A DNA stretch of 64,000 bases, taken from contig CAXXLL010000003.1 of assembly GCA_963662545.2 (NCBI GenBank), positions 1,440,001 to 1,504,000 of the forward strand, written 5' to 3'. Shown piece by piece: positions 7,215 to 35,358 of this stretch; position 1 is the first letter of the stretch, and every line of letters starts with the position of its first letter. A program made the position numbers and the translations under genes. Under the pieces are notes generated by a model. It was given only the letters and a program-made list of their open reading frames with translations. It was not told where the DNA came from and did no database searches. The stretch comes from Gammaproteobacteria bacterium. GTDB lineage: Bacteria > Pseudomonadota > Gammaproteobacteria > Ga0077536.

Positions 7215-7751
7215 GTGCGCGAATTCCTAACACCCGATGAGGTCGACAAGTTGATGCTAGCTGCGGGCCGAGTTGGTCGACATCAATTTCGAGATAAGAC
7301 ACTAATCCTAATCGCCTACCGCCACGCTTTACGAGTATCGGAATTAGTATCTCTCAGATGGGACCAGATTGACCTGAAACAGGGTCAAATACATGTCGTT
7401 CGCTTGAAGGGCGGGATCGACTCTACACACCCCTTGAGAGGCCCAGAATTGCGGGCTCTGAAGCGATTACAGCGCGAGTACGAGAAGTCCCCGTATGTGT
7501 TTGTTACAGAGCGTAGAGGGCCTTTTACGACTAGCGCCGTGAGGAAGATTATTGCTAGGGCGGGGGAAGTAGCTGAACTGGGGTTTCCTGTTCATCCCCA
7601 CATGCTGAGACATGCTTGCGGGTTCTATTTAGCTAATCAGGGTTTCGATACTCGAGCCATTCAGTTGTACCTGGGGCACTCGAATATTCAGCATACCTGC
7701 CGGTATACGGAGTTGGCGGCGAATCGGTTTAATGGGTTCTGGAAAGATTGA
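7215..7751 (+). CDS. FimB/FimE-like tyrosine recombinase (catalytic domain only; start uncertain)
   Basis: REFLT, AYRHALRVSEL, RLKGG, HPHMLRHACG, YLGHSNIQHTCRY: complete R-K-H-R-H-Y set. Confidence 0.9.
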   Translation: MREFLTPDEVDKLMLAAGRVGRHQFRDKTLILIAYRHALRVSELVSLRWDQIDLKQGQIHVVRLKGGIDSTHPLRGPELRALKRLQREYEKSPYVFVTERRGPFTTSAVRKIIARAGEVAELGFPVHPHMLRHACGFYLANQGFDTRAIQLYLGHSNIQHTCRYTELAANRFNGFWKD

Positions 7752-9751: not shown

Positions 9752-10055
9752 GTCCGTTGATGGCCGAGGCTGTGTCAAAAGTATTTTTGAATTTTGAAAG
9801 TGGGAGAAGTTTAGCTCGATTTGCCTACCTTAGGCGGTGTGTTCCCTTAATCAATCGTGCATAACAACCTAAGTGGGGAAAATTTTCGCGGCGGGCTCCA
9901 TTTTTCGACTTTTGACACAGCCTCGGCCGAGAGCCGACGCGCATCACCGTCACACCGCAGAACACTACTTAATGACCGCTTCCGAGGGTATTGCGGACGT
10001 AATCTAGAGTGGTGCTGCACTGCCGCGAGGCGGCGGCTCACGACCCGAAGCATTT
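9752..10055. repeat. Triad of 24-25 bp palindromic units (A-B-C), unit A interrupted by a MITE
   Basis: A GTCCGTT-GATGGCCGAG-AGCCGAC (after MITE removal); B GACCGCT-TCCGAGGGTAT-TGCGGAC (9974); C GGCGGCT-CACGACCCGA-AGCATTT (10032). Confidence 0.75.
9766..9924. mobile_element. IS1182-type MITE (159 bp)
   Basis: Perfect 17-bp IR GAGGCTGTGTCAAAAGT; GGCC duplicated at 9762-9765 and 9925-9928; interior homologous to MITE at 11555. Confidence 0.8.
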
Positions 10056-10186
10056 ATAGTAATTCGCAGCACTTGGCTGCAGCAACTGCATTAAAGGATT
10101 GAATACATTGGGTCGAAATAAACCTTAACGCGGCGCAGACTAGCAGGTTGCGATACATTTTCGCCTCAAATTACTAGGTGATAACT

Positions 10187-10813
10187 ATGGCTGACCAAGC
10201 AAATATGATCTGCCCAGGTTGTCAAATCTTTCAACCACGTGCATTGACCTGCAATACATGTGGCGTAGTTGTCGCGAAGGTCGGGAAACCCGCCCCAAGT
10301 GTGGCGCCAAGATCAACTGGGTCGCAAGCCCGCAACATGCCGAGGATTAATCCTAATTTGCTATTACTGATAGCCATTCCTGTCATCGGGCTTATAGTAT
10401 TTTCGGCCTCAGAAAATGCGGAGGAAGCCGATCGCACCGCTGATGCAGTGTCATCTGACGTCCGCGACAAGAAGAAAGCAACCCCTACCGACATGATCGC
10501 GGTAGTTAATCCATGTGCCGCTGCTCGTATTCAGCGTAATAACGTAAGAAGCAAATTACATACGCTGAAAACGATGCTGTATCAGTACAGCATGGAAGGG
10601 GACGATCCGCCAACCAATGACGAAGGACTACAGGCTTTGGTGGATCGCCGTTATCTGAGTCAGTCTGATATCACCGACGAATGGGGAAATACGTTCGTTT
10701 ACCGGCTGGAATGGGGTAAAGAGACGCCGTGGGGAAAAGAATACAAAATCTTTGTGCATTCCAAAGGAGCGGATGGGAGGTCTGGAAATTCCGATGATGT
10801 GGCTATGCCATAA
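10187..10813 (+). CDS. Protein with N-terminal CxxC..CxxC zinc ribbon, TM helix and C-terminal GspG/T2SSG-like domain
   Basis: CPGC...CNTC; PTNDEGLQALV, DEWGNTFVY, SKGADGRSGNSDD resemble the pseudopilin G C-terminus; no prepilin cleavage motif. Confidence 0.65.
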   Translation: MADQANMICPGCQIFQPRALTCNTCGVVVAKVGKPAPSVAPRSTGSQARNMPRINPNLLLLIAIPVIGLIVFSASENAEEADRTADAVSSDVRDKKKATPTDMIAVVNPCAAARIQRNNVRSKLHTLKTMLYQYSMEGDDPPTNDEGLQALVDRRYLSQSDITDEWGNTFVYRLEWGKETPWGKEYKIFVHSKGADGRSGNSDDVAMP

Positions 10814-10875
10814 ACAAGGATAAACAAAGTACGAGAGCATTAGGGTTCAGGTCTAGTCTTTTGCCTGTTCTCGAT

Positions 10876-10959
10876 GACCGCTTATGGCAGCGAGCCGCCG
10901 TCCGCCATAGTCGCACCAGCGAACGCTAGGGGCCGACCGCTTCCGAGGGGATTGTAAAC
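10876..10959. repeat. Palindromic unit pair A-B
   Basis: GACCGCT-TATGGCAGCG-AGCCGCC (10876) and GACCGCT-TCCGAGGGGAT-TGTAAAC (10935), 59 bp apart. Confidence 0.65.
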
Positions 10960-11105
10960 AGCCGAGTGCCCCTCCAATCAGATTATTTCTACTGTTTCGG
11001 GCATCTGGATTAGCTTGCACTTTAAGATAACAAAGGCTGATTTAGGTTTCGCGATGATCTGACGATAACTATAGGTGCCGTCAATCAATTGCAAGGAGTG
11101 AAGCC

Positions 11106-11396
11106 ATGCGTATGATTACCGCTGTCGCTCTGTGTCTAATCGTCTGCCTGTTTCCGGCGGATCAGGTCGAGGCCTTTGCCGTGCAACCTCAGCAGATGCA
11201 GCCGATGCTTGATCAGGCCTTCAAGGTACCGCAGCCGCAGGCCATTGAAGCCGCAAGCCGTCGAGTCGCAAAGGAAGCAGCCGCAAAGCAGGCACAAGAG
11301 CAAAACGAAAAATCTGCCCAGACGTTGCGAACCGCGATGTTTTGGGGAGCGGGACTCTTTGTCGGGTTTTTGTTCATGAGAAAGCTGAGAAACTAG
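11106..11396 (+). CDS. Small exported/membrane-anchored hypothetical protein
   Basis: RBS AAGGAG, N-terminal signal-like segment, C-terminal TM helix plus basic tail (MRKLRN). Confidence 0.65.
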   Translation: MRMITAVALCLIVCLFPADQVEAFAVQPQQMQPMLDQAFKVPQPQAIEAASRRVAKEAAAKQAQEQNEKSAQTLRTAMFWGAGLFVGFLFMRKLRN

Positions 11397-11482
11397 ACCG
11401 CAAACGAGCGTCGGAAAACCACTCACGGTTCATCCTACCTTGGTGCTTAACACGGTCCGACGCCCAACGAAGCCCCGCCTCA

Positions 11483-11726
11483 GACCGCTTCCGAGCGCAT
11501 TGCTGACGTAACGGTTAACCGTGCTGCATTGCGGCTAGAAGGCGGCTGACGACCCAGACTGTGTGAAAACTATTTTCATTTTTCAAAAGTGGGGGAACTA
11601 CCCTCGAAATTGGATCTATTGAAATGCCGATCCCTATTCGAGGGGCATAACAACTATGCTGGTGGGGAATATTTTTATTTCGTCGTCTATTTTTGAGTTT
11701 TCACACAGTCTGGACCCACAGCGGAC
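11483..11726. repeat. Palindromic unit pair B-C, unit C interrupted by a MITE
   Basis: GACCGCT-TCCGAGCGCAT-TGCTGAC (11483); GGCGGCT-GACGACCCAC-AGCGGAC (11541, after MITE removal); linker similar to 9999-10031. Confidence 0.75.
11555..11712. mobile_element. IS1182-type MITE (158 bp)
   Basis: IR CAGACTGTGTGAAAACT, nearly identical to IS1182 IR at 20206; GACC duplicated at 11551-11554 and 11713-11716. Confidence 0.82.
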
Positions 11727-11846
11727 CTCCATACCCAAGCCGATTAAGCTCAAATTCAGTGGCGCTTGGGCCGGAGTCCTACCGAATACATGCCTAGCTC
11801 CAGGTAATGATATAGTCCTCGACCGGCAACTTCAGAGGGGCGCATC

Positions 11847-12167
11847 ATGAATTACCGTGTGTTAATGCTTTTCGTAGCGGGCCTGTTTCTCAGCGCCTGT
11901 GGGGACGACGAAGCGGCGATACAAGCTAATGTACCAACTGAGTCGGAGGAACGCGTGTTCTTCGATCCTGCCGATGGGGGCGACATTATTGTGGGCGAAG
12001 ACGGGCAGATCGTTAAGATTCCGGAAGAAGAAACGAGCGAGTGGGCCAGATCGCCCACGGGAACGTCGGACGAATCAAGGTCCATAGACATTTCCGAAGT
12101 GGCACATAACGTTGCGGGCGAAGACGAGCAGATCGTTAAGATTCCGGAAGAAGAGGGCTCGGAATGA
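11847..12167 (+). CDS. Acidic hypothetical lipoprotein with internal repeat
   Basis: Lipobox LSAC; GEDGQIVKIPEEE / GEDEQIVKIPEEE repeat. Confidence 0.65.
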   Translation: MNYRVLMLFVAGLFLSACGDDEAAIQANVPTESEERVFFDPADGGDIIVGEDGQIVKIPEEETSEWARSPTGTSDESRSIDISEVAHNVAGEDEQIVKIPEEEGSE

Positions 12168-12492
12168 CCCCGGTAGATCAAAGCTAAGAACAACGAGTTG
12201 GGGTCTTGCGTTTCGTCTCGATCTCTTTTTGCCTCGTCCAAAGAAAAAGGCAATACCTGACGCGATCTTCGGACAGGCATGATCTCCGCGATCCAATTGA
12301 GATGCGGCTTCGTACTCGGTGAATAGAAGCCGCCGCCTTCGTCAAGTCCGAACCCGCCTTCGACCACGGTAGTCCCGCGCCGTCTCGTATGCCGCCGCGT
12401 AACACTCACAGGGTTGAGGTTCCAGCCACAGTCAAACGTCCTGGTTGGACGAATTGTTATACGACATCATCTTGGCGCGAGTTAATTAGCTA

Positions 12493-14179
12493 GTGTGCAT
12501 CCCTAAACGCGATGCGGTTGAAATAAAAAGGAAAATTTGTCGCTTAAGGGATCGAAACCTCCGGTGGGTCGTGATCTAATGGAACTTCAAACCTCTGATT
12601 TTCCACACAATCATCGACACCACAGGAGGGGGAATGCGTCAGAAACGCACGGCCCAAGCGAGTATATACGAGCTGTTTGCTGACCATGACCTGGGGCGAG
12701 AGCTGCAGGGCATGTCCGAGTGGCTCGATGCTCACCCCAAGGTCCTCACGCCGGTCATGAACGATCTGTGTCGGCGGGGTTTGAAGCCCACCGGTCGACG
12801 CGGACTGTCGGCGGAGTCGGTGCTGCGCTGCGCGGTGCTCAAGCAGCACCGGCAATTGAGTTACGAGGAGCTGGCCTTTCACCTGCAGGACTCGGCGAGC
12901 TTTCAGGCCTTCGCCCGGTTGCCGGGTAATGAACGTCCGAAGAAGTCTGCCTTACAGCGGGTGGTCTCGGCGATCCAGGTATCGACGTGGGAGTCTATTC
13001 ATCGCGCCCTGCTGGCGACGGCGAAAGAGACGCGCATTGAGCCGGCACAGCGTGTACGGATTGATAGCACGGTAACGGACAGTGCCATCCACGCGCCGAG
13101 CGACAGTCATCTGCTGTGGGATGGCGTGCGTGTTGTGGTTCGTCTGCTCGCACAGGCGCGCGAGTTGCCTGGCGCGCCGGAGTTGTGCTTCGTGAACCAC
13201 ACTCGATTGGCGAAGAAGCGTGCGCGGGCGCTGTGGTATGCGCGTGGTGCGAAGCAACGCCAACGTCTGTATCGCGATTTGATTGGGGCGACGCGTTCAA
13301 CCTTGGAAGCGGTAGCGAGGGTACGTGAGCAGCTGCTGAGCCCGGGCGTCACCGGCGTTGAACTGCCGGACTGGCTAGCGCAGGTAGCGCACTACGAAAC
13401 ACTTGTTCTGCAGGTGATTTCGCAAACTGAGCGGCGGGTGTTCGGCGGTGAGAAGGTCCCCGCGAGCGAGAAGTGCGTGAGCTTGTTCGAGCCGCATACC
13501 GACATCATCATAAAGGGTGCGCGCGACGTTCAGTACGGACACAAAATCAATCTGGCTTCGGGGCGCAGTGGCCTCATCCTCGACGTGGTCATCGAGCGAG
13601 GCAATCCGGTCGATAGTCAGCGCTTCATGCCGATGCTCGAACGGCATCGAACACACTACGGGACGATGCCACGACAGGTCGCCGCCGATGGCGGCTATGC
13701 GAGCCTCGACAATCTCCGGGCGGCGAAAGCAGAAGGCATCGAAGACGTTGCCTTCCACAAGAAGCGCGGGCTCGCGATCGCCGACATGGTCAAGAGTCAG
13801 TGGGTCTATCGACGCTTGCGCAACTTCCGCGCCGGCATCGAGGCCGGTATCTCCTGCCTGAAGCGTGCATACGGATTGGCACGTTGCACCTGGAAGAGCC
13901 TGCCGCACTTCGAAGCCTACGTGTGGTCTTCTGTGGTCGCCTACAACCTCAGCCTGCTCGCGCGCTATCAACTCGAATAGCGACGTTCACTCGCACTAAC
14001 TGACCTCCTCGATATCGTCGAACGGGCGACTTTGGGTTGCAGCGCTCTGCGGCCGGCGAACGTACTCACAATTACGCTCGAAGAGCCCTTCGACCCCCAC
14101 CGAACCGCCGCTACCGCTGACCTACTTTCAACACCTCCTCCGTGCCCATCGAAGAAAATGCCTGTTTATGGACGGACAC
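12493..14179 (+). mobile_element. ISNCY-family IS (ISDol1-like), copy 1
   Basis: IRs GTGTGCATCCCTAAAC / rc GTGTCCGTCCATAAAC; flanked by TAGCTA (12487-12492, 14180-14185). Confidence 0.85.
12634..13980 (+). CDS. ISNCY-family DDE transposase
   Basis: RIDSTV, VAADGGY, RNFRAGIEAGISCLKR; RBS GGAGGGGG. Confidence 0.9.
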   Translation: MRQKRTAQASIYELFADHDLGRELQGMSEWLDAHPKVLTPVMNDLCRRGLKPTGRRGLSAESVLRCAVLKQHRQLSYEELAFHLQDSASFQAFARLPGNERPKKSALQRVVSAIQVSTWESIHRALLATAKETRIEPAQRVRIDSTVTDSAIHAPSDSHLLWDGVRVVVRLLAQARELPGAPELCFVNHTRLAKKRARALWYARGAKQRQRLYRDLIGATRSTLEAVARVREQLLSPGVTGVELPDWLAQVAHYETLVLQVISQTERRVFGGEKVPASEKCVSLFEPHTDIIIKGARDVQYGHKINLASGRSGLILDVVIERGNPVDSQRFMPMLERHRTHYGTMPRQVAADGGYASLDNLRAAKAEGIEDVAFHKKRGLAIADMVKSQWVYRRLRNFRAGIEAGISCLKRAYGLARCTWKSLPHFEAYVWSSVVAYNLSLLARYQLE

Positions 14180-14185
14180 TAGCTA

Positions 14186-15852
14186 GTGTGCATCCCTAAA
14201 CGCGATGCGGTTGAAATAAAAAGGAAAATTTGTCGCTTAAGGGATCGAAACCTCCGGTGGGCGTGATCTAATGGAACTTCAAACCTCTGATTTTCCACAC
14301 AATCATCGACACCACATGCGTCAAGCGAGTACGAGCTGTTTGCTGACCATGACCTGGGGCGAGAGCTGCAGGGCATGTCCGAGTGGCTCGATGCTCACCC
14401 CAAGGTCCTCACGCCGGTCATGAACGATCTGTGTCGGCGGGGTTTGAAGCCCACCGGTCGACGCGGACTGTCGGCGGAGTCGGTGCTGCGCTGCGCGGTG
14501 CTCAAGCAGCACCGGCAATTGAGTTACGAGGAGCTGGCCTTTCACCTGCAGGACTCGGCGAGCTTTCAGGCCTTCGCCCGGTTGCCGGGTAATGAACGTC
14601 CGAAGAAGTCTGCCTTACAGCGGGTGGTCTCGGCGATCCAGGTATCGACGTGGGAGTCTATTCATCGCGCCCTGCTGGCGACGGCGAAAGAGACGCGCAT
14701 TGAGCCGGCACAGCGTGTACGGATTGATAGCACGGTAACGGACAGTGCCATCCACGCGCCGAGCGACAGTCATCTGCTGTGGGATGGCGTGCGTGTTGTG
14801 GTTCGTCTGCTCGCACAGGCGCGCGAGTTGCCTGGCGCGCCGGAGTTGTGCTTCGTGAACCACACTCGATTGGCGAAGAAGCGTGCGCGGGCGCTGTGGT
14901 ATGCGCGTGGTGCGAAGCAACGCCAACGTCTGTATCGCGATTTGATTGGGGCGACGCGTTCAACCTTGGAAGCGGTAGCGAGGGTACGTGAGCAGCTGCT
15001 GAGCCCGGGCGTCACCGGCGTTGAACTGCCGGACTGGCTAGCGCAGGTAGCGCACTACGAAACACTTGTTCTGCAGGTGATTTCGCAAACTGAGCGGCGG
15101 GTGTTCGGCGGTGAGAAGGTCCCCGCGAGCGAGAAGTGCGTGAGCTTGTTCGAGCCGCATACCGACATCATCATAAAGGGTGCGCGCGACGTTCAGTACG
15201 GACACAAAATCAATCTGGCTTCGGGGCGCAGTGGCCTCATCCTCGACGTGGTCATCGAGCGAGGCAATCCGGTCGATAGTCAGCGCTTCATGCCGATGCT
15301 CGAACGGCATCGAACACACTACGGGACGATGCCACGACAGGTCGCCGCCGATGGCGGCTATGCGAGCCTCGACAATCTCCGGGCGGCGAAAGCAGAAGGC
15401 ATCGAAGACGTTGCCTTCCACAAGAAGCGCGGGCTCGCGATCGCCGACATGGTCAAGAGTCAGTGGGTCTATCGACGCTTGCGCAACTTCCGCGCCGGCA
15501 TCGAGGCCGGTATCTCCTGCCTGAAGCGTGCATACGGATTGGCACGTTGCACCTGGAAGAGCCTGCCGCACTTCGAAGCCTACGTGTGGTCTTCTGTGGT
15601 CGCCTACAACCTCAGCCTGCTCGCGCGCTATCAACTCGAATAGCGACGTTCACTCGCACTAACTGACCTCCTCGATATCGTCGAACGGGCGACTTTGGGT
15701 TGCAGCGCTCTGCGGCCGGCGAACGTACTCACAATTACGCTCGAAGAGCCCTTCGACCCCCACCGAACCGCCGCTACCGCTCCAACAACCTACTTTCAAC
15801 ACCTCGATTTCTCCGTGCCCATCGAAGAAAATGCCTGTTTATGGACGGACAC
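14186..15852 (+). mobile_element. ISNCY-family IS copy 2 in direct tandem; 5' end has small deletions removing the native RBS and disrupting the N-terminal codons (ORF 14375-15643)
   Basis: Apparently identical to copy 1 over most of its length; TAGCTA at 15853-15858. Confidence 0.75.
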
Positions 15853-16166
15853 TAGCTAGGCATCATCGCTCGCACTAAAAAAAACACCGGCAGTATACAC
15901 AAAAGAATATAACTCGCGATTGCTTTTCGGCTTGTCCTATATTTGGATTTATTCACCACGAGTTTCAAGATTGCCAGCAAGCCCCGAAACCAGTATACGA
16001 GAGCGCACATTACGGCGAGCGCGTTTAGCATGACCAATCCTGCTGGAGGATCATCGCCAGGTGTGCGATAAACAATGCTGAGCGCAATTCCTAATAGCAA
16101 TACGCCGCCAAGAGTTCCGTACAGTGCACTGTTTAGAATCTTAATTTCTGGAGCCGCTTCATTCAT
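15852..16166 (-). CDS. Small hypothetical membrane protein (3 TM); IS pair inserted at its stop codon
   Basis: Three hydrophobic segments; ends at the TAGCTA target. Confidence 0.6.
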   Translation of the reverse strand: MNEAAPEIKILNSALYGTLGGVLLLGIALSIVYRTPGDDPPAGLVMLNALAVMCALVYWFRGLLAILKLVVNKSKYRTSRKAIASYILLCILPVFFLVRAMMPS

Positions 16167-16276
16167 TTTTGGGTCACATCTTTATTCGAAACTCAATTAC
16201 AATGTTGTCACGTTCTCGGTGCCACCAAAAGTTGGCAATCTAGAGCGAAGAAGATTATGCACTTAACACTGGCTCC

Positions 16277-16549
16277 ATGATTCGCTTCCTAATCGTGCTG
16301 GTCCTCGCGTTCGTGACCGTGACTGCGTCGGCTGAGCCACTACCGCTCGGCGCTCATTCGCGTGCAGATGAGCTTCGGCTGAGGCGGGGAGATGTCGATG
16401 CCGCCCGGCATATAGAGCACGAGCGGATCCGCCTTGAAAGCGAACGGCTCAAATTGGACAGCGCCCGTATACAGCTCGATAACGGAAAGATTGAGCGCGA
16501 GCGCCGCGCGCCGAAATCGCGCTACAACTTGCCGCTTATTGGGGAATGA
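16277..16549 (+). CDS. Small secreted hypothetical protein
   Basis: Signal peptide (TASA-E), coiled-coil-like body; overlaps next gene (ATGA). Confidence 0.5.
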   Translation: MIRFLIVLVLAFVTVTASAEPLPLGAHSRADELRLRRGDVDAARHIEHERIRLESERLKLDSARIQLDNGKIERERRAPKSRYNLPLIGE

Positions 16550-17637
16550 CGGAGATAGGTTTAATTCCCCGGATGAAGCGTAGCGTAATCCGGGGAAACT
16601 TAGTCGCCGGTCTCCTATTTCTGGCAGGTTGCAGTAGCGCACCCGTTCAGGCGCCCGGCAAGGCTTGGCATCATCTCAATAATGGCCAATTTCGCAATCC
16701 ACCAGGAAGCCCCACTAGCACGGCGACCTTCGGCGATCTGACGGCATTCTTCTGGCGGCGTGCACGCGCTAAACCACCGACAGTACCGACCGATCATGTC
16801 ATCCCACAGGCGGACGCATTGGCAGCGTATGAGGCCACCGCAAACCAGGACACCGCGACGTGGCTTGGTCACGCTTCTTTTCTCTTGCGGCTCGAAGGTA
16901 AAACCGTTCTGACCGATCCCTACCTCACGAAGGTAGCCGGGCCCTTCGGTTTCGGCCCCAAGCGTTACGTCGCACCGGGCTTACCGCTCGATCGCTTGCC
17001 ACCGATCGACATCATCCTTGTCAGCCACAATCACTACGACCATCTGGACGCGAAAACCGTCGAGGCACTGCCCGGGAAGGAACGCATACACGTCGTGGTT
17101 CCGCTGCGCTTAGGAGATTTCTTCCGCGAGCGGGGGTATGTCAACGTGCATGAGAATGATTGGTTCGAACGCGTTGTGATCGACGGTATCGAGATCGAAG
17201 TGCTGCCGGCGATACATTTTTCACGCCGGGGCCTGTTCGATCGTAATCGAACACTATGGGGCGGTTTCGCTATCCGCGCCGGCGGGCGAAGCATATACCA
17301 CTCGGGCGACACCGGTTACGGACCCATCTTCAGCGAGGTGAATCGGCGCTCCGGGCCATTCGACCTCGCGCTTATCGCGATCGGTGCATATAAGCCGCGG
17401 TCCATAATGCGGCGCTCGCACGTGACGCCCGAACAAGCTGTGCAACTCGTCGACGACATCGGCGCTAAAAGAGCCATAGGTATGCACTGGGGCACCGTGG
17501 AACTGACCGACGAGCCACACTTCGAGCCGGGGAAACGTTTTCTTAAAGCCGCGCACGCGGCAGGTTGGATAGAAGGGCGCGCTCGAATCATGAAAATCGG
17601 AGAAACACTGGTGCTTTCACCACTTACCGCCAGTTAA
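16546..17637 (+). CDS. MBL-fold metallohydrolase (RomA/NAPE-PLD-like), probable lipoprotein
   Basis: TWLGHAS, LTDP, SHNHYDHLD, HSGDTGY, GMHWGT motifs; LAGC lipobox. Confidence 0.9.
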   Translation: MTEIGLIPRMKRSVIRGNLVAGLLFLAGCSSAPVQAPGKAWHHLNNGQFRNPPGSPTSTATFGDLTAFFWRRARAKPPTVPTDHVIPQADALAAYEATANQDTATWLGHASFLLRLEGKTVLTDPYLTKVAGPFGFGPKRYVAPGLPLDRLPPIDIILVSHNHYDHLDAKTVEALPGKERIHVVVPLRLGDFFRERGYVNVHENDWFERVVIDGIEIEVLPAIHFSRRGLFDRNRTLWGGFAIRAGGRSIYHSGDTGYGPIFSEVNRRSGPFDLALIAIGAYKPRSIMRRSHVTPEQAVQLVDDIGAKRAIGMHWGTVELTDEPHFEPGKRFLKAAHAAGWIEGRARIMKIGETLVLSPLTAS

Positions 17638-17728
17638 CACGTCCGGCACAGCGGGAGAATGCGGTGCGGCATAGCAAAGGGGACAGATTTAGTTGCGGGG
17701 TTTACGTTCTATTCAAATAAATCTGTCC

Positions 17729-19081
17729 CTGAAGGCTCCCCACGAATTGAAGGAGAATTCACATAAAAAATAGCCATTTAGAAAAATAAATAGCGAACAA
17801 TAGGGAACATGCATGACGTTCGGTGATCAATAACGGTGACGAAACCAAATTGGTCACGGGAGAACGCCATGCATGCACTGAGATTGTTGCACAAAATAAT
17901 GGGGCAAGCCTGTCCGCAGATACACGCGGTAAGGCTAACGGCATTGATGGCGAGCGTTGAGGCGCTGCTGGTAGGTCGTCAGATGAGCTTAGCCGGTCTT
18001 GGTCGCGCCATGGTGTCGGGGGCGCGAGTCAAGCACAACATCAAGCGAGTCGACCGGTTAATTGGCAACCGTCATCTGTGGGGAGAACGAACGGAACTCT
18101 ATGGGGCGATGGCGGGGCTGGTGCTTGGACAAGGACCACGTCCGGTAATTATTCTGGACTGGTCGGATATGCGCGAAGATCGGTCATGGCAGTTGTTGCG
18201 TGCGGCGGTTCCGGTGGGAGGCCGTTCACTGACGCTCTACGAAGAAGTACATCCCTTGTCGGCGTATGACAACCGGGGTGTCAGGAAACGGTTTCTGGAG
18301 CGTCTTCGAGAGATCTTACCACCGGGGTGTCGCCCGCTCTTAGTCACGGATGCCGGCTTCCGGACGACTTGGTTTAGACAGGTCGAAGCAATGGGTTGGG
18401 ACTGGGTCGGTCGGGTCCGCGGGCGCACCCATTTCCGGCTGGACAACCAGGCAAGCTGGCAACCGTGCCGGACGTTGCATGCGATGGCCAACTCACGTGT
18501 GCGGCATATCGGGACAGTCGAACTAACGGTATCGAATCCATTGGCCTGTGACCTGTACCTGGTGAAGAAGAAAAAGCGTGGCCGTCAACAACTGACCTGC
18601 CGCGGCACGCGTGCCCGTGGTGGCCGCAGCCTTAGCTGTGAACGACGCCAGCGCGAACCCTGGATATTGGTCACCTCACTGGGGTCGCGCGCGGCCCAGC
18701 AGGTGATGCGGTGTTATCAGTTGCGCATGCAGATTGAGGAGAGCTTCCGGGATATGAAAAATGCCCGTTTGGGACTGCACTTCCGCAGCGCGCGTTCCAA
18801 CAGCGCCGAGCGGCTCTCGATCCTCGTCCTGATTGGTACGTTGGCAACATTAGTCGCTTGGTTAGTCGGCCAAGCGATGCAGCGTTTCGGGCTGCAGCGC
18901 CATTACCAAGCGAATACAACCCGGCATCGGCCGGTACTCTCCACCGTCTTTCTGGGCTTGCAAAGTTTTTGCAGGCAACCCGTAAAGCTTATGCTGGCGG
19001 ACATCAAGCAATCGATTATCGCCTTACACCAAATTACCGCAAACCCGTTGCGTTATGTGTAAGTTCGTGGGGATCCTTCAG
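17729..19081 (+). mobile_element. IS4-family (IS10-group-like) insertion sequence
   Basis: IRs CTGAAGGCTCCCCACGAA / rc CTGAAGGATCCCCACGAA; 9-bp TSD AATCTGTCC (17720-17728, 19082-19090). Confidence 0.92.
17869..19062 (+). CDS. IS4-family transposase
   Basis: KHNIKRVDRLIGN, ILDWS, VTDAGF, YQLRMQIEESFRDMK (YREK motif). Confidence 0.92.
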   Translation: MHALRLLHKIMGQACPQIHAVRLTALMASVEALLVGRQMSLAGLGRAMVSGARVKHNIKRVDRLIGNRHLWGERTELYGAMAGLVLGQGPRPVIILDWSDMREDRSWQLLRAAVPVGGRSLTLYEEVHPLSAYDNRGVRKRFLERLREILPPGCRPLLVTDAGFRTTWFRQVEAMGWDWVGRVRGRTHFRLDNQASWQPCRTLHAMANSRVRHIGTVELTVSNPLACDLYLVKKKKRGRQQLTCRGTRARGGRSLSCERRQREPWILVTSLGSRAAQQVMRCYQLRMQIEESFRDMKNARLGLHFRSARSNSAERLSILVLIGTLATLVAWLVGQAMQRFGLQRHYQANTTRHRPVLSTVFLGLQSFCRQPVKLMLADIKQSIIALHQITANPLRYV

Positions 19082-19114
19082 AATCTGTCCCCTTTAGTTG
19101 CAGAGCTTCGCCTG

Positions 19115-20059
19115 CTATAAGGATTTTGGATCCATGAACCCGTCGTCGTGCACAAGCCAGCGCACCAAATTCGGTTCCATCAGCTCTGTAATAAGCGATT
19201 CATACCGCCTGATCTGATCAGCGGTCAACACGCCTTCCCAGCGACGATTGGTGCCCTTGTGAAAGAAATTCTTACTGTCTTTCCACACCCCCCTACTGCT
19301 GCCCGGCGCACGCGTAGCGAAGTTGCGCTTCATCTCATCGAATGTGACCGACTGCACTAGCGCCGGCCAGACGTCCTCGTTTACCGGTATGTCGAGATAC
19401 GCGGCTATACGGCGCATCTGACCGTTCAGATCATCGAGCATATCGGCGAAATGAACACACAGGATATTGTCGAGGTGCCGGTAGTTCCACCACGTTTGTG
19501 CGTGATTATGGAGTGACCATGCCGGATAGCCGTCGCGTTCCCAGGGGTATAGGGATTTCGACATCCACTCATCGAACCCCTCGTTGATGTTTGTGGCAAC
19601 CGGCGGGACCTCGGGTCCTTTGCGTAGAGGATTATCGTTCAACGCCTGCACCACCTCCGGTTTCATGTTGCGGAAGTGATTCCACAGCGACATCCACACG
19701 TCGCGCCCGTCACGACCGACGAAGATGTAATGGACATTGTCGTAATAGGGCACTGCCGTGAGCGGTAAATGCGTCTTGACGTAACGGCGGTAGGTCATCG
19801 TTTCGACGCGGTCGAGGACGTCCTCAATGGGATGGTACATTGAGTCGATCCACGGTGAGAGTTCGTCCAGCGGTGCAGGAGGGTCCGGTGATTGAAAAAT
19901 AAGCGCCCCGCAGATCGCCTGTGTCCAGGTCGTGCCGCCTTTGTACGACGTCGAGATGATGACGTCACCGTCGCGCGGTTTGAAACCGTCCCAGCGCGTG
20001 CTGTCGAAGAACGTGTTCTGGTAAATACGAGTTACTTCTGGCAAGGAGGGCAACGACAT
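19115..20059 (-). CDS. PAPS-dependent sulfotransferase (Sulfotransfer_1)
   Basis: TSYKGGTTW (5'-PSB loop), KTHLP, GRDGRDVWMS, FFHKGTNRRW; RBS GGAGAG. Confidence 0.9.
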   Translation of the reverse strand: MSLPSLPEVTRIYQNTFFDSTRWDGFKPRDGDVIISTSYKGGTTWTQAICGALIFQSPDPPAPLDELSPWIDSMYHPIEDVLDRVETMTYRRYVKTHLPLTAVPYYDNVHYIFVGRDGRDVWMSLWNHFRNMKPEVVQALNDNPLRKGPEVPPVATNINEGFDEWMSKSLYPWERDGYPAWSLHNHAQTWWNYRHLDNILCVHFADMLDDLNGQMRRIAAYLDIPVNEDVWPALVQSVTFDEMKRNFATRAPGSSRGVWKDSKNFFHKGTNRRWEGVLTADQIRRYESLITELMEPNLVRWLVHDDGFMDPKSL

Positions 20060-20205
20060 TAAGTGCTCTCTCCATATTTTCTTAAGGTAACGGAACCGTA
20101 ACCCGTCCGGGAATCGATAATCAACTGACAAGAGCGATTGAAAACTTGGTTCTCGTCGTCGGACGGGCATAGCGGTTCCGGATTTGTGGAGGTCCGCTGT
20201 GGGTC

Positions 20206-21896
20206 CAGAGTGTGTGAAAACTCTGCATCAGATAAGATCTCCCTTTCGGTCCTGGGGAGTCGTCGATGAGCGGGTTCATTGAAGGCGCGGACCGCCGCCA
20301 AACAACGCTGTTTCCCGAGTGTCTGGACGATTATGTCGCTGAGGAGAGTGCGGTGCGGGTCATCGATGTGTTCGTCGATGAGTTGGATCTGTCAGGTCTG
20401 AGTTTCAGAACCGATGCGCATGAGACGGGTCGACCGGGGTATCACCCGGCGACGATGCTGAAGCTCTATATCTACGGTTACCTGAACCGGGTTCAATCGA
20501 GCCGTCGCCTGGAACGGGAGGCGCAGCGGAACGTGGAACTGATGTGGCTGACGGGTCGTCTGGCGCCTGATTTCAAGACCATTGCCGATTTCCGCAAAGA
20601 TAACGGTGACGCCATTCGTCTGGTATGCCGGGAGTTCGTGATGCTGTGCCGTAAGCTGCAGCTGTTTTCGGAAGCCTTCGTGGCGATAGATGGCAGCAAG
20701 TTCAAAGCGGTAAACAACCGTGACCGGAACTTCACGAAGGCGAAGCTGAAACGTCGGTTGCAGCAGATTGACGAGAGCGTTGAGCGGTACCTGGCGGAAA
20801 TTGCAAGTGCCGACCGCCAGGAGCGTGCGGTGTCAGGTGACAAGTCGCAGCGTTTGAAGGACAAGATCGAGGTACTGAAGGAAGAGATAGGCCGCCTAAA
20901 AAAGCTCGAGGTACGGCTCGAGGAGACGCCGGACCATCAGGTCTCACTGACGGACCCGGACGCGCGCTCGATGGCGACGAGCGGCCGTGGCAGCGGCATG
21001 GTGGGGTACAACGTGCAGACGGCGGTCGACACGAAGAGTCATCTGATTGTGGCACATGAAGTGACGAACGTAGGTCATGACCGGGCGCAACTGTCGAACA
21101 TGTCGGAGAAAGCCAAAGAGGCGCTGGATAAGAAGGAGTTGACCGTCGTTGCGGATCGCGGGTACTTCAGTGGCGAAGAGATCTTGGCGTGCGCTAAAGC
21201 CGGCATCACGACCTATCTGCCGAAACCGCAGACCTCGGGTAACCAGGCGAAGGGCTTGTTTGGCAAGCGCGACTTCATTTACCAACCCGAAGAGGATGCG
21301 TATGAATGCCCGGCCGGTGAGCGACTGATTTACCGGTTCACCCGAGTGGAGAAAGGCAAGCAGATCCGGCGCTACTGGAGTTCGGCGTGTCCCCGCTGCC
21401 CGATCAAATCTAAATGCACAACGGGTCGATACCGGCGCGTCAGCCGTTGGGAACATGAAGCGGTTGTTGAAGCGGTGCAGGCGCGATTGGATCGTGAACC
21501 TGACCCTATGCGTGTCCGCCGAGAGACGGTCGAGCATCCATTTGGCACGATCAAATCCTGGATGGGTTCGACCCACTTCCAGATGCGCATGCGCACGCTG
21601 AAACACGTTGGTACGGAAATGAGTCTGCACGTGCTCGCTTACAACATGAAACGCGTGATGAATCTACTGGGTGTCGCTACGCTCATCGAAGCGATGACGG
21701 CATGAGACCCTCTGTGGCCTCGAAAACTCCCTGATCCACGGCTTCACTGCCGGCTTCTGGGGCCGTTCTAAGGAATGTTCCATTAACTAACCGATCGCAT
21801 TGGACCGCGAGCGCGGCCGTCGTAACCGCGCCGCGTTGCGTCTGACGAGGAGTTCTCGACGTGATTCCTCTTCATTCCGAGTTTTCACACACTCTG
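20206..21896 (+). mobile_element. IS1182-family insertion sequence
   Basis: Perfect 18-bp IR CAGAGTGTGTGAAAACTC; 4-bp TSD GGTC (20202-20205, 21897-21900). Confidence 0.92.
20266..21705 (+). CDS. IS1182-family transposase
   Basis: GRPGYHP, SSRRLERE, PDFKTIADFR, AIDGSK, TDPDAR, ADRGY, RRETVEHPFGTIK. Confidence 0.92.
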   Translation: MSGFIEGADRRQTTLFPECLDDYVAEESAVRVIDVFVDELDLSGLSFRTDAHETGRPGYHPATMLKLYIYGYLNRVQSSRRLEREAQRNVELMWLTGRLAPDFKTIADFRKDNGDAIRLVCREFVMLCRKLQLFSEAFVAIDGSKFKAVNNRDRNFTKAKLKRRLQQIDESVERYLAEIASADRQERAVSGDKSQRLKDKIEVLKEEIGRLKKLEVRLEETPDHQVSLTDPDARSMATSGRGSGMVGYNVQTAVDTKSHLIVAHEVTNVGHDRAQLSNMSEKAKEALDKKELTVVADRGYFSGEEILACAKAGITTYLPKPQTSGNQAKGLFGKRDFIYQPEEDAYECPAGERLIYRFTRVEKGKQIRRYWSSACPRCPIKSKCTTGRYRRVSRWEHEAVVEAVQARLDREPDPMRVRRETVEHPFGTIKSWMGSTHFQMRMRTLKHVGTEMSLHVLAYNMKRVMNLLGVATLIEAMTA

Positions 21897-22049
21897 GGTC
21901 GTCAGCGGCCCCATCGCGGCAGCGCAGCACTGTTAAGCATTACGTCTGCAGTACCCTCGTAAGCGGTCGTCGAGTAACTTTCAGTGGTGTGTTAACCGAG
22001 GATGACGGCTTGCGGCCAGGAACAGACATGCCACTCTCTGGGCTGCAAA

Positions 22050-35224: not shown

Positions 35225-35230
35225 AAGCTA

Positions 35231-35296
35231 AGCGGACGCCAAGTCGCTATAAACGTCGTGAAAAAGCCTGACTCCGGCTCACGGCCAACGCCGGTC
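35231..35296. repeat. Half unit plus full palindromic unit of the 24-bp family
   Basis: AGCGGAC at 35231-35237 and TCCGGCT-CACGGCCAAC-GCCGGTC at 35273-35296; right arms 59 bp apart. Confidence 0.55.
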
Positions 35297-35358
35297 ATTC
35301 ACGCTGCCAATACCCTCGGATATGCTGCCCGCTGGATTTACTGGTGGGGGATTGAAAG

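Follow-up and report, generated by a model that had tools for sequence, protein, structure and literature searches.

What are the short palindromic sites that stand between unrelated single genes in a gammaproteobacterium of the Ga0077536 lineage, and do they bound gene cassettes? The stretch of DNA that raises this question, hereafter the window, comprises 64,000 nucleotides (assembly GCA_963662545.2, contig CAXXLL010000003.1, positions 1,440,001 to 1,504,000); features within it are given by their position in the window, and features elsewhere by contig and coordinate. A preliminary description made from the letters of the window listed ten such units between 9752 and 22027 and proposed a site-specific system of gene capture and shuffling. 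We found that these palindromic units are sub-sites of a single module of ~147 bp, with the order A-linker-B-linker-C once mobile inserts are removed, and our tentative answer, which falls just short of even chances, is that this module is the recombination site of a non-integron, site-bounded, cassette-like system of gene accretion and shuffling in this genus.

Structure of the repeat module

All ten units were confirmed by direct reading of the window, where they belong to four copies of the module. Each sub-site is ~24–25 bp long, with a centre of 10–11 bp that is flanked by inverted arms of 7 bp (GNCCGCT / AGCNGAC). Module matches were collected by nhmmer with a profile built from 108 copies in the genome, in which unit A occupies positions 8–31 (GTCCGCT-N10-AGCCGAC), unit B positions 67–91 (GACCGCT-N11-TGCAGAC) and unit C positions 125–148 (GGCCGCT-N10-AGCGGAC). 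The fixed spacing of 59 and 58 bp first seen in the window holds genome-wide, from A-left to B-left in 44 of 46 copies and from B-left to C-left in 98 of 101, the centre of C is 10 bp long in 63 of 69 copies, and the left arms of A, B and C all lie in one orientation. Conservation per position is near-invariant in the arms of B (0.88–1.00; GACCGCT / TGCAGAC) and weakest in those of A (0.46–0.91), while the right arm of C, AGCGGAC, is kept at 0.70–0.97 despite moving with the downstream gene unit. The two outer arms, A-left (GTCCGCT) and C-right (AGCGGAC), are exact reverse complements of each other in the consensus. The conserved B-C linker noticed earlier (GTAA...GTGCTGC) is real and forms part of a 7-1-7 palindrome, GCAGTGC-T-GCACTGC, and the A-B linker falls into a few discrete sequence types that are common to modules with unrelated flanks; over the whole 147 bp the modules are ~75–85% alike. 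The unit consensus as originally written fared less well: taken as a literal regular expression it fits one of the ten window units and finds only 22 sites in the genome, so that a profile is needed, by which the repeat itself is far beyond chance. A 29-codon frame running from position 6 to a conserved TAA was ruled out as a small open reading frame (ORF), as many copies have an in-frame TGA.

The copies in the window differ in completeness and several are split by mobile elements. Copy 1 (9752–10055, plus strand; sequence read directly, with an nhmmer match at 9911–10055 to profile positions 4–148, E = 8e-33) is an A-B-C module whose unit A is divided into A-left (9752–9761) and the rest of A (9925–9938), followed by B (9974–9998) and by C (10032–10055), the right arm of which is degenerate. 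The division is due to a 163-bp MITE (miniature inverted-repeat transposable element) at the centre of A (9762–9924), which has GGCC on both sides and the terminal inverted repeats GGCCGAGGCTGTGTC.../...GACACAGCCTCGGCC. Copy 2 (10872–10958, plus strand; profile 4–90, nhmmer E = 1.6e-10) is truncated to A (10876–10899), the linker and the left part of B (10935–10959, with a degenerate right arm). Copy 3 (11440–11730, plus strand; nhmmer hit at 11440–11565, profile 45–149, E = 7e-21) is a short form with B at 11483–11507 and C-left at 11541–11554; its C is split by a MITE, beyond which the remainder of the spacer and the right arm (...CACAGCGGAC) lie at ~11717–11727. That MITE (11551–11712, 162 bp, in the spacer of unit C) belongs to a family that we call T1, has the target duplication GACC and derives from an IS1182-like insertion sequence (IS). 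Copy 4 (20192–22034, minus strand) is inverted and full-length, with C-right at 20192–20205, C-left through A at 21886–22030 (nhmmer 21886–22030, profile 5–149, E = 4e-39), B at 21944–21968 and A at 22004–22027. The spacer of its C is split by an IS1182-like element of the T1 family of ~1.69 kb (20206–21896, plus strand; classified as T1(1691)), which has a 4-bp GACC duplication and encodes a transposase at 20266–21705 (Pfam DUF772, DDE_Tnp_1, DDE_Tnp_1_6). A weak match at 35229–35301 on the minus strand (profile 3–75, nhmmer E = 2.7e-5) is a partial fifth copy.

The arrangement A-B / gene / B-C that was described around the gene at 11106–11396 is also real, with profile positions 4–90 on one side and 45–149 on the other, and it is the only split in the genome with such a long overlap. 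Based on 15 other genome matches that start only at profile positions 43–65, i.e., that have no A, the window split may perhaps be a truncated module followed by a short-form one. Separately, a segment of ~1.16 kb lies inside a module between B and C at C2:710902–712064, where 14 profile positions occur on either side of it, and one of the congeners introduced below has it twice in tandem (G001, L010:10178–12514); two more modules are split in the same B-C region with overlaps of 8–9 positions (C3:373190/373404 and C2:1632730/1631268).

Module arrays in the genome and in its relatives

The window comes from a genome of 5.58 Mb in 3 contigs (G000), in which the profile gave 119 matches. The copies are strongly clustered: 111 of the 119 lie in 12 arrays of 3–39 copies that together span 299 kb, i.e., 93% of the copies fall within 5.4% of the genome. 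Neighbours less than 25 kb apart form 102 pairs, of which 100 are co-oriented. The window holds one of the two exceptions, copies 1–3 on the plus strand facing copy 4 on the minus strand. A link to the direction of replication was rejected, since the orientation of the arrays agrees with the sign of the GC skew in 8 and disagrees with it in 9.

BLAST searches identified the module in both of the other genomes of the same genus that were compared, G001 (89% complete) and G002 (95% complete), and did not find it in 38 further relatives (0 of 22 from the same family and 0 of 16 from the same class). For wider collections we used a 24-position pattern that matches 41 copies in G000; this gave six stretches in a collection of 185,579 species and one metagenome contig, four of the six stretches being from the two congeners and two being short contigs 96–99.7% identical to G000, and these matches are too few to reveal a linked enzyme. 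On the short contig of this close relative (L041, 96–99.7% identity) one standard module joins two segments that are far apart in G000. The matching site in G000, C2:606650–606880, has a shortened and degenerate module of ~100 nt that the profile misses, and the count of 119 copies is therefore a lower bound.

Gene units and breaks in homology

The largest array (array 3) has 39 modules over 136 kb, and we scanned its 100 predicted ORFs; leaving aside genes for transposases and recombinases, ORFs with no Pfam match and four that lie outside the array, we were left with 49 genes. Their functions are unrelated and include luciferase-like monooxygenases, hydantoinases, acyl-CoA dehydrogenases, transporters, SnoaL, cupins and MerB. 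The gaps between modules range from 0.5 to 9 kb.

Gene units occur in different contexts, both within the genome and when it is compared with the two congeners, and we located the ends of homology in pairs of modules, within G000 and against the arrays of G001 and G002, that have a near-identical flank on one side only. Of the 8 independent comparisons with a shared downstream flank, 7 become identical within C; the last mismatch in these falls at profile positions 125–144, and in 5 of the 8 at 133 or beyond. One by one, the last mismatches are at 125, at 129–133 (a trio of IS-carrying modules), at 134, at 134–135, at 137, at ≥140 and, ambiguously, at ~140–155. Four of these comparisons have an intact C in both partners and break within ~10 nt of the C spacer. 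Where the upstream flank was shared (10 comparisons), 4 end in the centre of A (at 22, 22, ~24–27 and 28), and one runs to 139, one of its partners bearing an IS. By these alignments the start of a gene unit is well defined, lying at the centre of C, and its end, which often falls in the middle of A, is less so. A-left and C-right, the outer arms, move together with the gene unit. In an example from the window, the sequence that follows C in copy 4 is that which follows C in the copy at C3:359190, and the interiors of these two modules differ at 39 positions. Genome-wide dispersal, variable spacing and unchanging gene content had been named beforehand as signs against a shuffling system; instead the copies are clustered, their spacing is conserved, and relatives and paralogous copies show gene change with breaks inside A and C.

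Insertion sequences and MITEs at the unit centres

The centres of the units are also the targets of several mobile elements. An IS or MITE is present in 44 of 109 C units, and these insertions belong to four families that all use the same position of the spacer, after GACGACC. The T1 family accounts for 32 of them (14 of ~1.69 kb, 15 MITEs of 158–160 bp, one of 865 bp and two whose far end was not found), with a GACC duplication wherever it could be read, and the other three families for 5, 4 and 3. The genome has 70 exact T1 ends, 31 of which follow the left part of C; from this we infer, assuming two ends per element, that ~31 of the genome's 35 T1 elements sit in C units. The centre of A is occupied less often, 13 of 119 modules having the end signature of the MITE at 9762–9924 in their A loop. 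The MITE at 11551–11712 is skipped precisely by contigs of all four public runs that were compared with the window, and it is therefore present or absent within the population.

Elements similar to IS91, which encode a tyrosine recombinase and a Y2 transposase, sit at the CTTG of unit A, and this explains the presence of recombinase genes inside arrays; as these are ordinary insertions, we rejected their recombinases as the array enzyme. Copies of this family, ~2.86 kb with the tyrosine recombinase upstream of the Y2 transposase, are found at C3:6565–9421, C3:920803–923659, C2:623520–627523 and C2:1616663–1618960, and one of them is itself split by a Mutator-family IS.

Separation from the integrons of the same genome

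The genome also encodes two IntI integrases that score above the TIGR02249 cut-off (462 and 461 bits; C2:996723 and C3:1527239), each in a complete integron (C2:982000–997700 and C3:1524815–1528180). The C2 integron has at least 10 canonical attC sites of ~110 bp upstream of IntI, and the C3 integron, which lies 23 kb past the end of the window, has one. The attC sites of this genome are self-complementary repeats of ~110 bp with CCTAAC...GTTAGG ends, and an attC profile finds several dozen more of them, ~30 being in a row at C3:1917893–1949543. Together with C2:1163237–1168088, C2:433037–437089 and others, this row is of the type known as clusters of attC sites lacking integron-integrases (CALINs), having no integrase nearby.

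The attC loci lie almost wholly apart from the module arrays, the exceptions being a few matches in or beside arrays 15 and 16 (C3:2542954 and C3:2553454). The module arrays nearest to the two intI genes are ~65 kb and ~113 kb away, none is closer than 65 kb, and no IntI with an attI adjoins an array. Set against the canonical attC sites of its own genome, the module has neither R'' (RYYYAAC) nor R' (GTTRRRY) boxes and is not an imperfect palindrome over its whole length, in agreement with the earlier observation that the units lack attC ends; a search for a reverse-strand match of the module to itself found none.

Candidate recombinases

The preliminary description put forward as a candidate catalyst the recombinase encoded at 7215–7751 (plus strand), 2 kb upstream of module 1. 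This is a tyrosine recombinase of 178 residues that consists of the catalytic domain only (PF00589, E = 1.5e-42) and is closest to the invertases of the FimB/FimE type, with NCBIfam subfamily scores below cut-off. It is a candidate enzyme, weakly linked to the module: the gene has four relatives in the genome, and copies or fragments of it are in or beside four arrays (the window, 7, 9 and 16), namely a copy split by an IS, whose end lies 290 bp short of array 9, and fragments in arrays 7 and 16, one intact copy being far from arrays. Besides the window gene the loci of this family are C2:486760–487290, C3:352372–354605, C2:2569853–2569927 and C3:2558330–2558394. Homology among its members stops exactly at the stop codon, which differs among the copies (TGA, TAA and TAG). 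An upstream region common to two of the copies has inverted CTTTCCCGAA / TTTTCGGGAAAG motifs and hints at a leader that is invertible or bears a site.

Two arrays of G000 and the array of G002 begin beside tRNA genes, and other arrays do not. Array 10 starts after a tRNA-Met gene and an ORF for an integrase of 422 residues, array 0 after a tRNA cluster and an ORF for a recombinase of 287 residues, and the array of G002 40 nt after tRNA-Sec. In G002 the tRNA-Sec gene (L009:9953–10048) is directly followed by the module array; in G000 there is a full tRNA-Sec look-alike at C2:1267607–1267739 with partial copies at 1248576 and 1252840 (region C2:1248576–1267739), and these copies suggest islands inserted in tandem at that tRNA. 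No IntI was found in the assembly of G002, though it has modules. Genes with the Y1_Tnp domain are present in all three genomes; a check of four of the eleven Y1_Tnp matches showed four loci similar to REP-associated tyrosine transposases (RAYTs; REP, repetitive extragenic palindrome), each flanked by inverted repeats other than the module units. Outside the arrays there is another REP-like palindrome, GCCCGCC-N11-GGCGG with a loop of the TATTGCACGAA type (e.g., C3:544258 and C2:2397319).

Proposed recombination at the module and alternative explanations

Based on the clustering, the co-orientation, the fixed geometry, the conservation across species and the focused breaks, array growth and shuffling by recombination at the module fit best. 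In such a scheme a circular piece with one module would recombine with a resident module, which would add a gene unit and leave two direct modules, and the reverse reaction would remove gene units. The centre of C, where the downstream unit starts, would be the main place of exchange and the centre of A, where the upstream unit ends, a frequent one, so that gene units would alternate with a connector of ~115 nt made up of the right half of A, B and the left half of C, and the strongly conserved B and the linkers would bind the enzyme or accessory proteins. Here we infer the site-specificity of the exchange, the existence of circles and the role of B, which is no demonstrated crossover point. 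We regard as doubtful a more far-reaching version, in which promoter-carrying units and the ~115-nt connector alternate between A and C core sites, with B as an accessory site and an unrecognised or housekeeping recombinase, in arrays that reach 39 units and 136 kb, and which would be a second gene-cassette system beside the canonical integrons.

A number of observations weigh against recombination by a dedicated system at the module, and several of them concern the enzyme. No recombinase could be linked to the module among the genomes examined. The gene at 7215 has copies or fragments in or beside four arrays and was not found in G001 or G002 at E ≤ 1e-20, so that the proposal that it is the catalyst loses ground, with the reservation that genes missing from these congeners are weak evidence because metagenome-assembled genomes may lack mobile regions. 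G002, which has modules, has two tyrosine recombinase genes only, which we take to encode putative XerC and XerD, their scores matching the two best hits in G000; apart from these putative XerC and XerD genes, no recombinase was found in all three genomes. Serine recombinases (PF00239) are represented by a single interrupted match in G000 and were not found in G001 or G002. Nor is there a gene common to array flanks, which share only IS copies and one duplicated housekeeping flank of 2.4 kb.

The breaks, too, are less sharp than a single crossover site would make them. The eighth downstream comparison begins at ~106–114, and the IS-carrying trio, one of the eight, in which all members have the 1.69-kb IS, is explicable by recombination between the IS copies. 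Among the remaining upstream comparisons 2 end near 121, 1 near 100–105 and 2 just before the module, where one and the same gene unit adjoins the long form (A-B-C) in the first copy and the short form (B-C) in the second. The hot spots of breakage, the centres of C and A, coincide with the insertion points of ISs and MITEs, and recombination between IS or MITE copies could therefore create them. Because breaks occur at several positions, homologous or IS-mediated exchange is a live alternative to a dedicated site-specific enzyme. A circle or excision joint was not seen in contigs of the public runs, which break at repeats; the joints found there, apart from the empty site of the MITE, have short sides (21–39 nt), come from other module copies and are evidence neither way. 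Gene direction is another such point. The genes of array 3 with Pfam support do not share the direction of the module, reading with it in 24 cases and opposite to it in 25, and the nearest upstream ORF of 111 modules in all arrays, by crude ORF calls, is co-oriented in 43, opposed in 38 and missing in 30. As they are read in both directions, the units are not promoterless cassettes served by one promoter and must have promoters of their own. Finally, RNAalifold gave no consensus structure on either strand for 30 intact copies and no covariation, and the units are not conserved hairpins. An RNA element was rejected as well, a search of the window with Rfam at gathering thresholds returning only a tRNA; the module is therefore conserved as sequence and not as a folded RNA or hairpin, a type of conservation that would be expected of protein-binding sites. 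What stands of the proposed gene capture and shuffling system is thus that it is non-attC and clustered and that contexts change with breaks in A and C, whereas the link to a recombinase and a single break point do not.

The main rival explanation, which we consider rather unlikely, is that the module is an extragenic repeat like the REPs and the bacterial interspersed mosaic elements (BIMEs) that they form, with no dedicated recombinase, and that RecA-dependent recombination between modules, above all between identical IS or MITE copies in the centres of A and C, does the shuffling. It would account for a mosaic of short GC-rich palindromic units and conserved linkers that is a strong target of several IS families, for break hot spots at their insertion points, for the scatter of other breaks over the module and, with no recombinase in common beyond the two putative Xer genes, for the absence of a linked enzyme; the MITE that is present or absent in the population also agrees with it. 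However, independent insertion does not explain why 93% of the copies are confined to 5.4% of the genome with 100 of 102 pairs co-oriented, the three units of the module share one orientation whereas the REPs of BIMEs alternate, as far as the available part of the source describes them (PMC2817692), and the four RAYT-like loci are flanked by other inverted repeats. Moreover, four clean breaks in the C spacer lie between partners with intact C, and modules of 75–85% identity over 147 bp would be poor substrates for homologous recombination.

The other explanations have less in their favour. That the modules are composite arm-core-arm (POP') attachment sites, left by small integrase-dependent islands accreted in tandem beside tRNA genes, is improbable: arrays 10 and 0 do follow a tRNA and an integrase or recombinase ORF and the G002 array follows tRNA-Sec, modules at such starts point the same way as the tRNA gene, and a site of ~150 bp with one crossover and two accessory units resembles attP, but the module contains no tRNA 3'-end sequence, the flanking integrases come from different families and none was found in G002, no tRNA-integrase start is seen in the largest arrays (3, 5, 7 and 9), and upstream-shared comparisons often break at A and do not run through to the core. 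We see about as little likelihood in the idea that the ~115-nt interior is a small non-autonomous mobile element inserted in a pre-existing intergenic palindrome of 24 bp (GTCCGCT...GRCC...AGCGGAC). The ends of the consensus, GTCCGCT / AGCGGAC, are indeed reverse complements that travel with the flanking gene units; both junctions fall at a central GRCC, which T1 elements and the A-loop MITE likewise duplicate as their target, and the few types of A-B linker recur in modules with unrelated flanks. Yet no empty target palindromes were recognised among 588 matches to a loose arm pattern, most of them chance or another REP family, the co-orientation within arrays is not accounted for, and the short forms without A and the breaks near 100–121 do not fit. 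Seen as a MITE, the module has ends that are reverse complements, but homology of its flanks runs 15–20 nt into A and ~8–12 nt into C, where that around a MITE would stop exactly at the ends. Least credible of all is the idea that the resident IntI integrases act on the module as on an atypical attC-like site and that the arrays are ordinary CALINs. Two intact IntI genes are present, and arrays 15 and 16 have their few canonical attC matches; against this stand the missing boxes and whole-length self-complementarity, a distance of more than 65 kb between the arrays and either intI, genes that are not co-oriented, and modules in G002, whose assembly has no IntI.

Comparison with known systems

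Sedentary chromosomal integrons and CALINs are arrays of cassettes bounded by attC sites (PMC4889954, from the part of the article available). The module arrays resemble them as long chromosomal rows of unrelated accessory genes with one lineage-specific repeat in a single orientation, in which a gene unit is found in different contexts and the sites are targeted by specialised mobile elements. They differ in that the module does not fold into an imperfect palindrome with RYYYAAC/GTTRRRY ends, has no IntI and attI adjacent, and separates larger units (at gaps of 0.5–9 kb) whose genes read both ways, where integron ORFs are mostly co-oriented with their sites, and in that breaks occur at two or more positions of the site. 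The dif modules of Acinetobacter plasmids have XerC/XerD sites (pdif) of 28 bp (11-6-11) that are AT-rich and inversely oriented around each module, going by the available portion of PMC13141974. As far as that portion describes them, they are similar in that each gene module has a short core site for a recombinase on either side, that two kinds of module alternate (C and D modules there, gene unit and connector here) and that no dedicated recombinase gene adjoins them; unlike pdif, the units here are GC-rich (7-10/11-7), co-oriented, chromosomal and part of a fixed triad of 147 bp. Because the defining features of both families were looked for and are absent here, we place the module system in neither the integron/CALIN nor the dif-module family.

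According to the accessible parts of three sources, REPs and BIMEs share with the module short GC-rich palindromic units, linkers of fixed spacing and preferred points of IS insertion (PMC2817692, PMC3333891, PMC1525189), REPs being known IS targets (PMC1525189) that alternate in orientation within BIMEs (PMC2817692). In these same parts REPs are dispersed and alternating, with a RAYT flanked by cognate REPs, whereas the module occurs in clusters of co-oriented copies and the RAYT-like loci examined have other flanks.

The res sites of Tn3-family resolvases are ~120–150 bp long and comprise one crossover sub-site and two accessory ones, all three of the dimer type and set at fixed distances. 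The module likewise has three sub-sites at fixed spacing and a similar length; its arm sequences and spacers differ from res, and the only serine recombinase gene of G000 is broken.

To our knowledge, no system other than the integron is well understood among those that store single genes in long rows on the chromosome, and the dif modules of Acinetobacter hint at further shuffling systems bounded by sites. Here, ~5% of one genome is organised by a different and precisely built three-unit site beside classical integrons, and because the two occur in the same genome the integrons serve as an internal control for the separateness of the two systems. If the exchange at the module is site-specific, it represents a new site architecture and points to a recombinase that is as yet unrecognised or re-used; if it is not, this is a clear case of a repeat and the ISs that target it mimicking a cassette system, and a warning for the reading of similar non-integron arrays.

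Genes in and around the arrays

The gene units of the window read from the plus strand up to the convergence of the two module groups. Between modules 1 and 2 lies a gene for a protein of 211 residues (10178–10813, plus strand) whose C-terminus is similar to type II secretion system protein G (PF08334, E = 2.7e-8), and between truncated module 2 and short-form module 3 the gene for a protein of 96 residues (11106–11396, plus strand) with no Pfam family. The unit downstream of module 3 (11834–12424, plus strand) comprises a lipoprotein-like ORF (11847–12167) and its 3' region, and has 90% identity to a unit of G002 that lies between tRNA-Sec and a module; the module expected after it is missing in the window. 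The space between the converging module groups is filled by two near-identical tandem genes for DDE transposases (12634–13980 and 14375–15643) and a third IS (17836–19062). Directly downstream of inverted copy 4, on its C side, is a sulfotransferase gene (19115–20170, minus strand; PF00685, E = 1.6e-40). Elsewhere in the genome, an operon for the C, A and B subunits of an ammonia/methane monooxygenase is located at C2:751695–754535, ~2.7 kb beyond the upstream end of the largest array.

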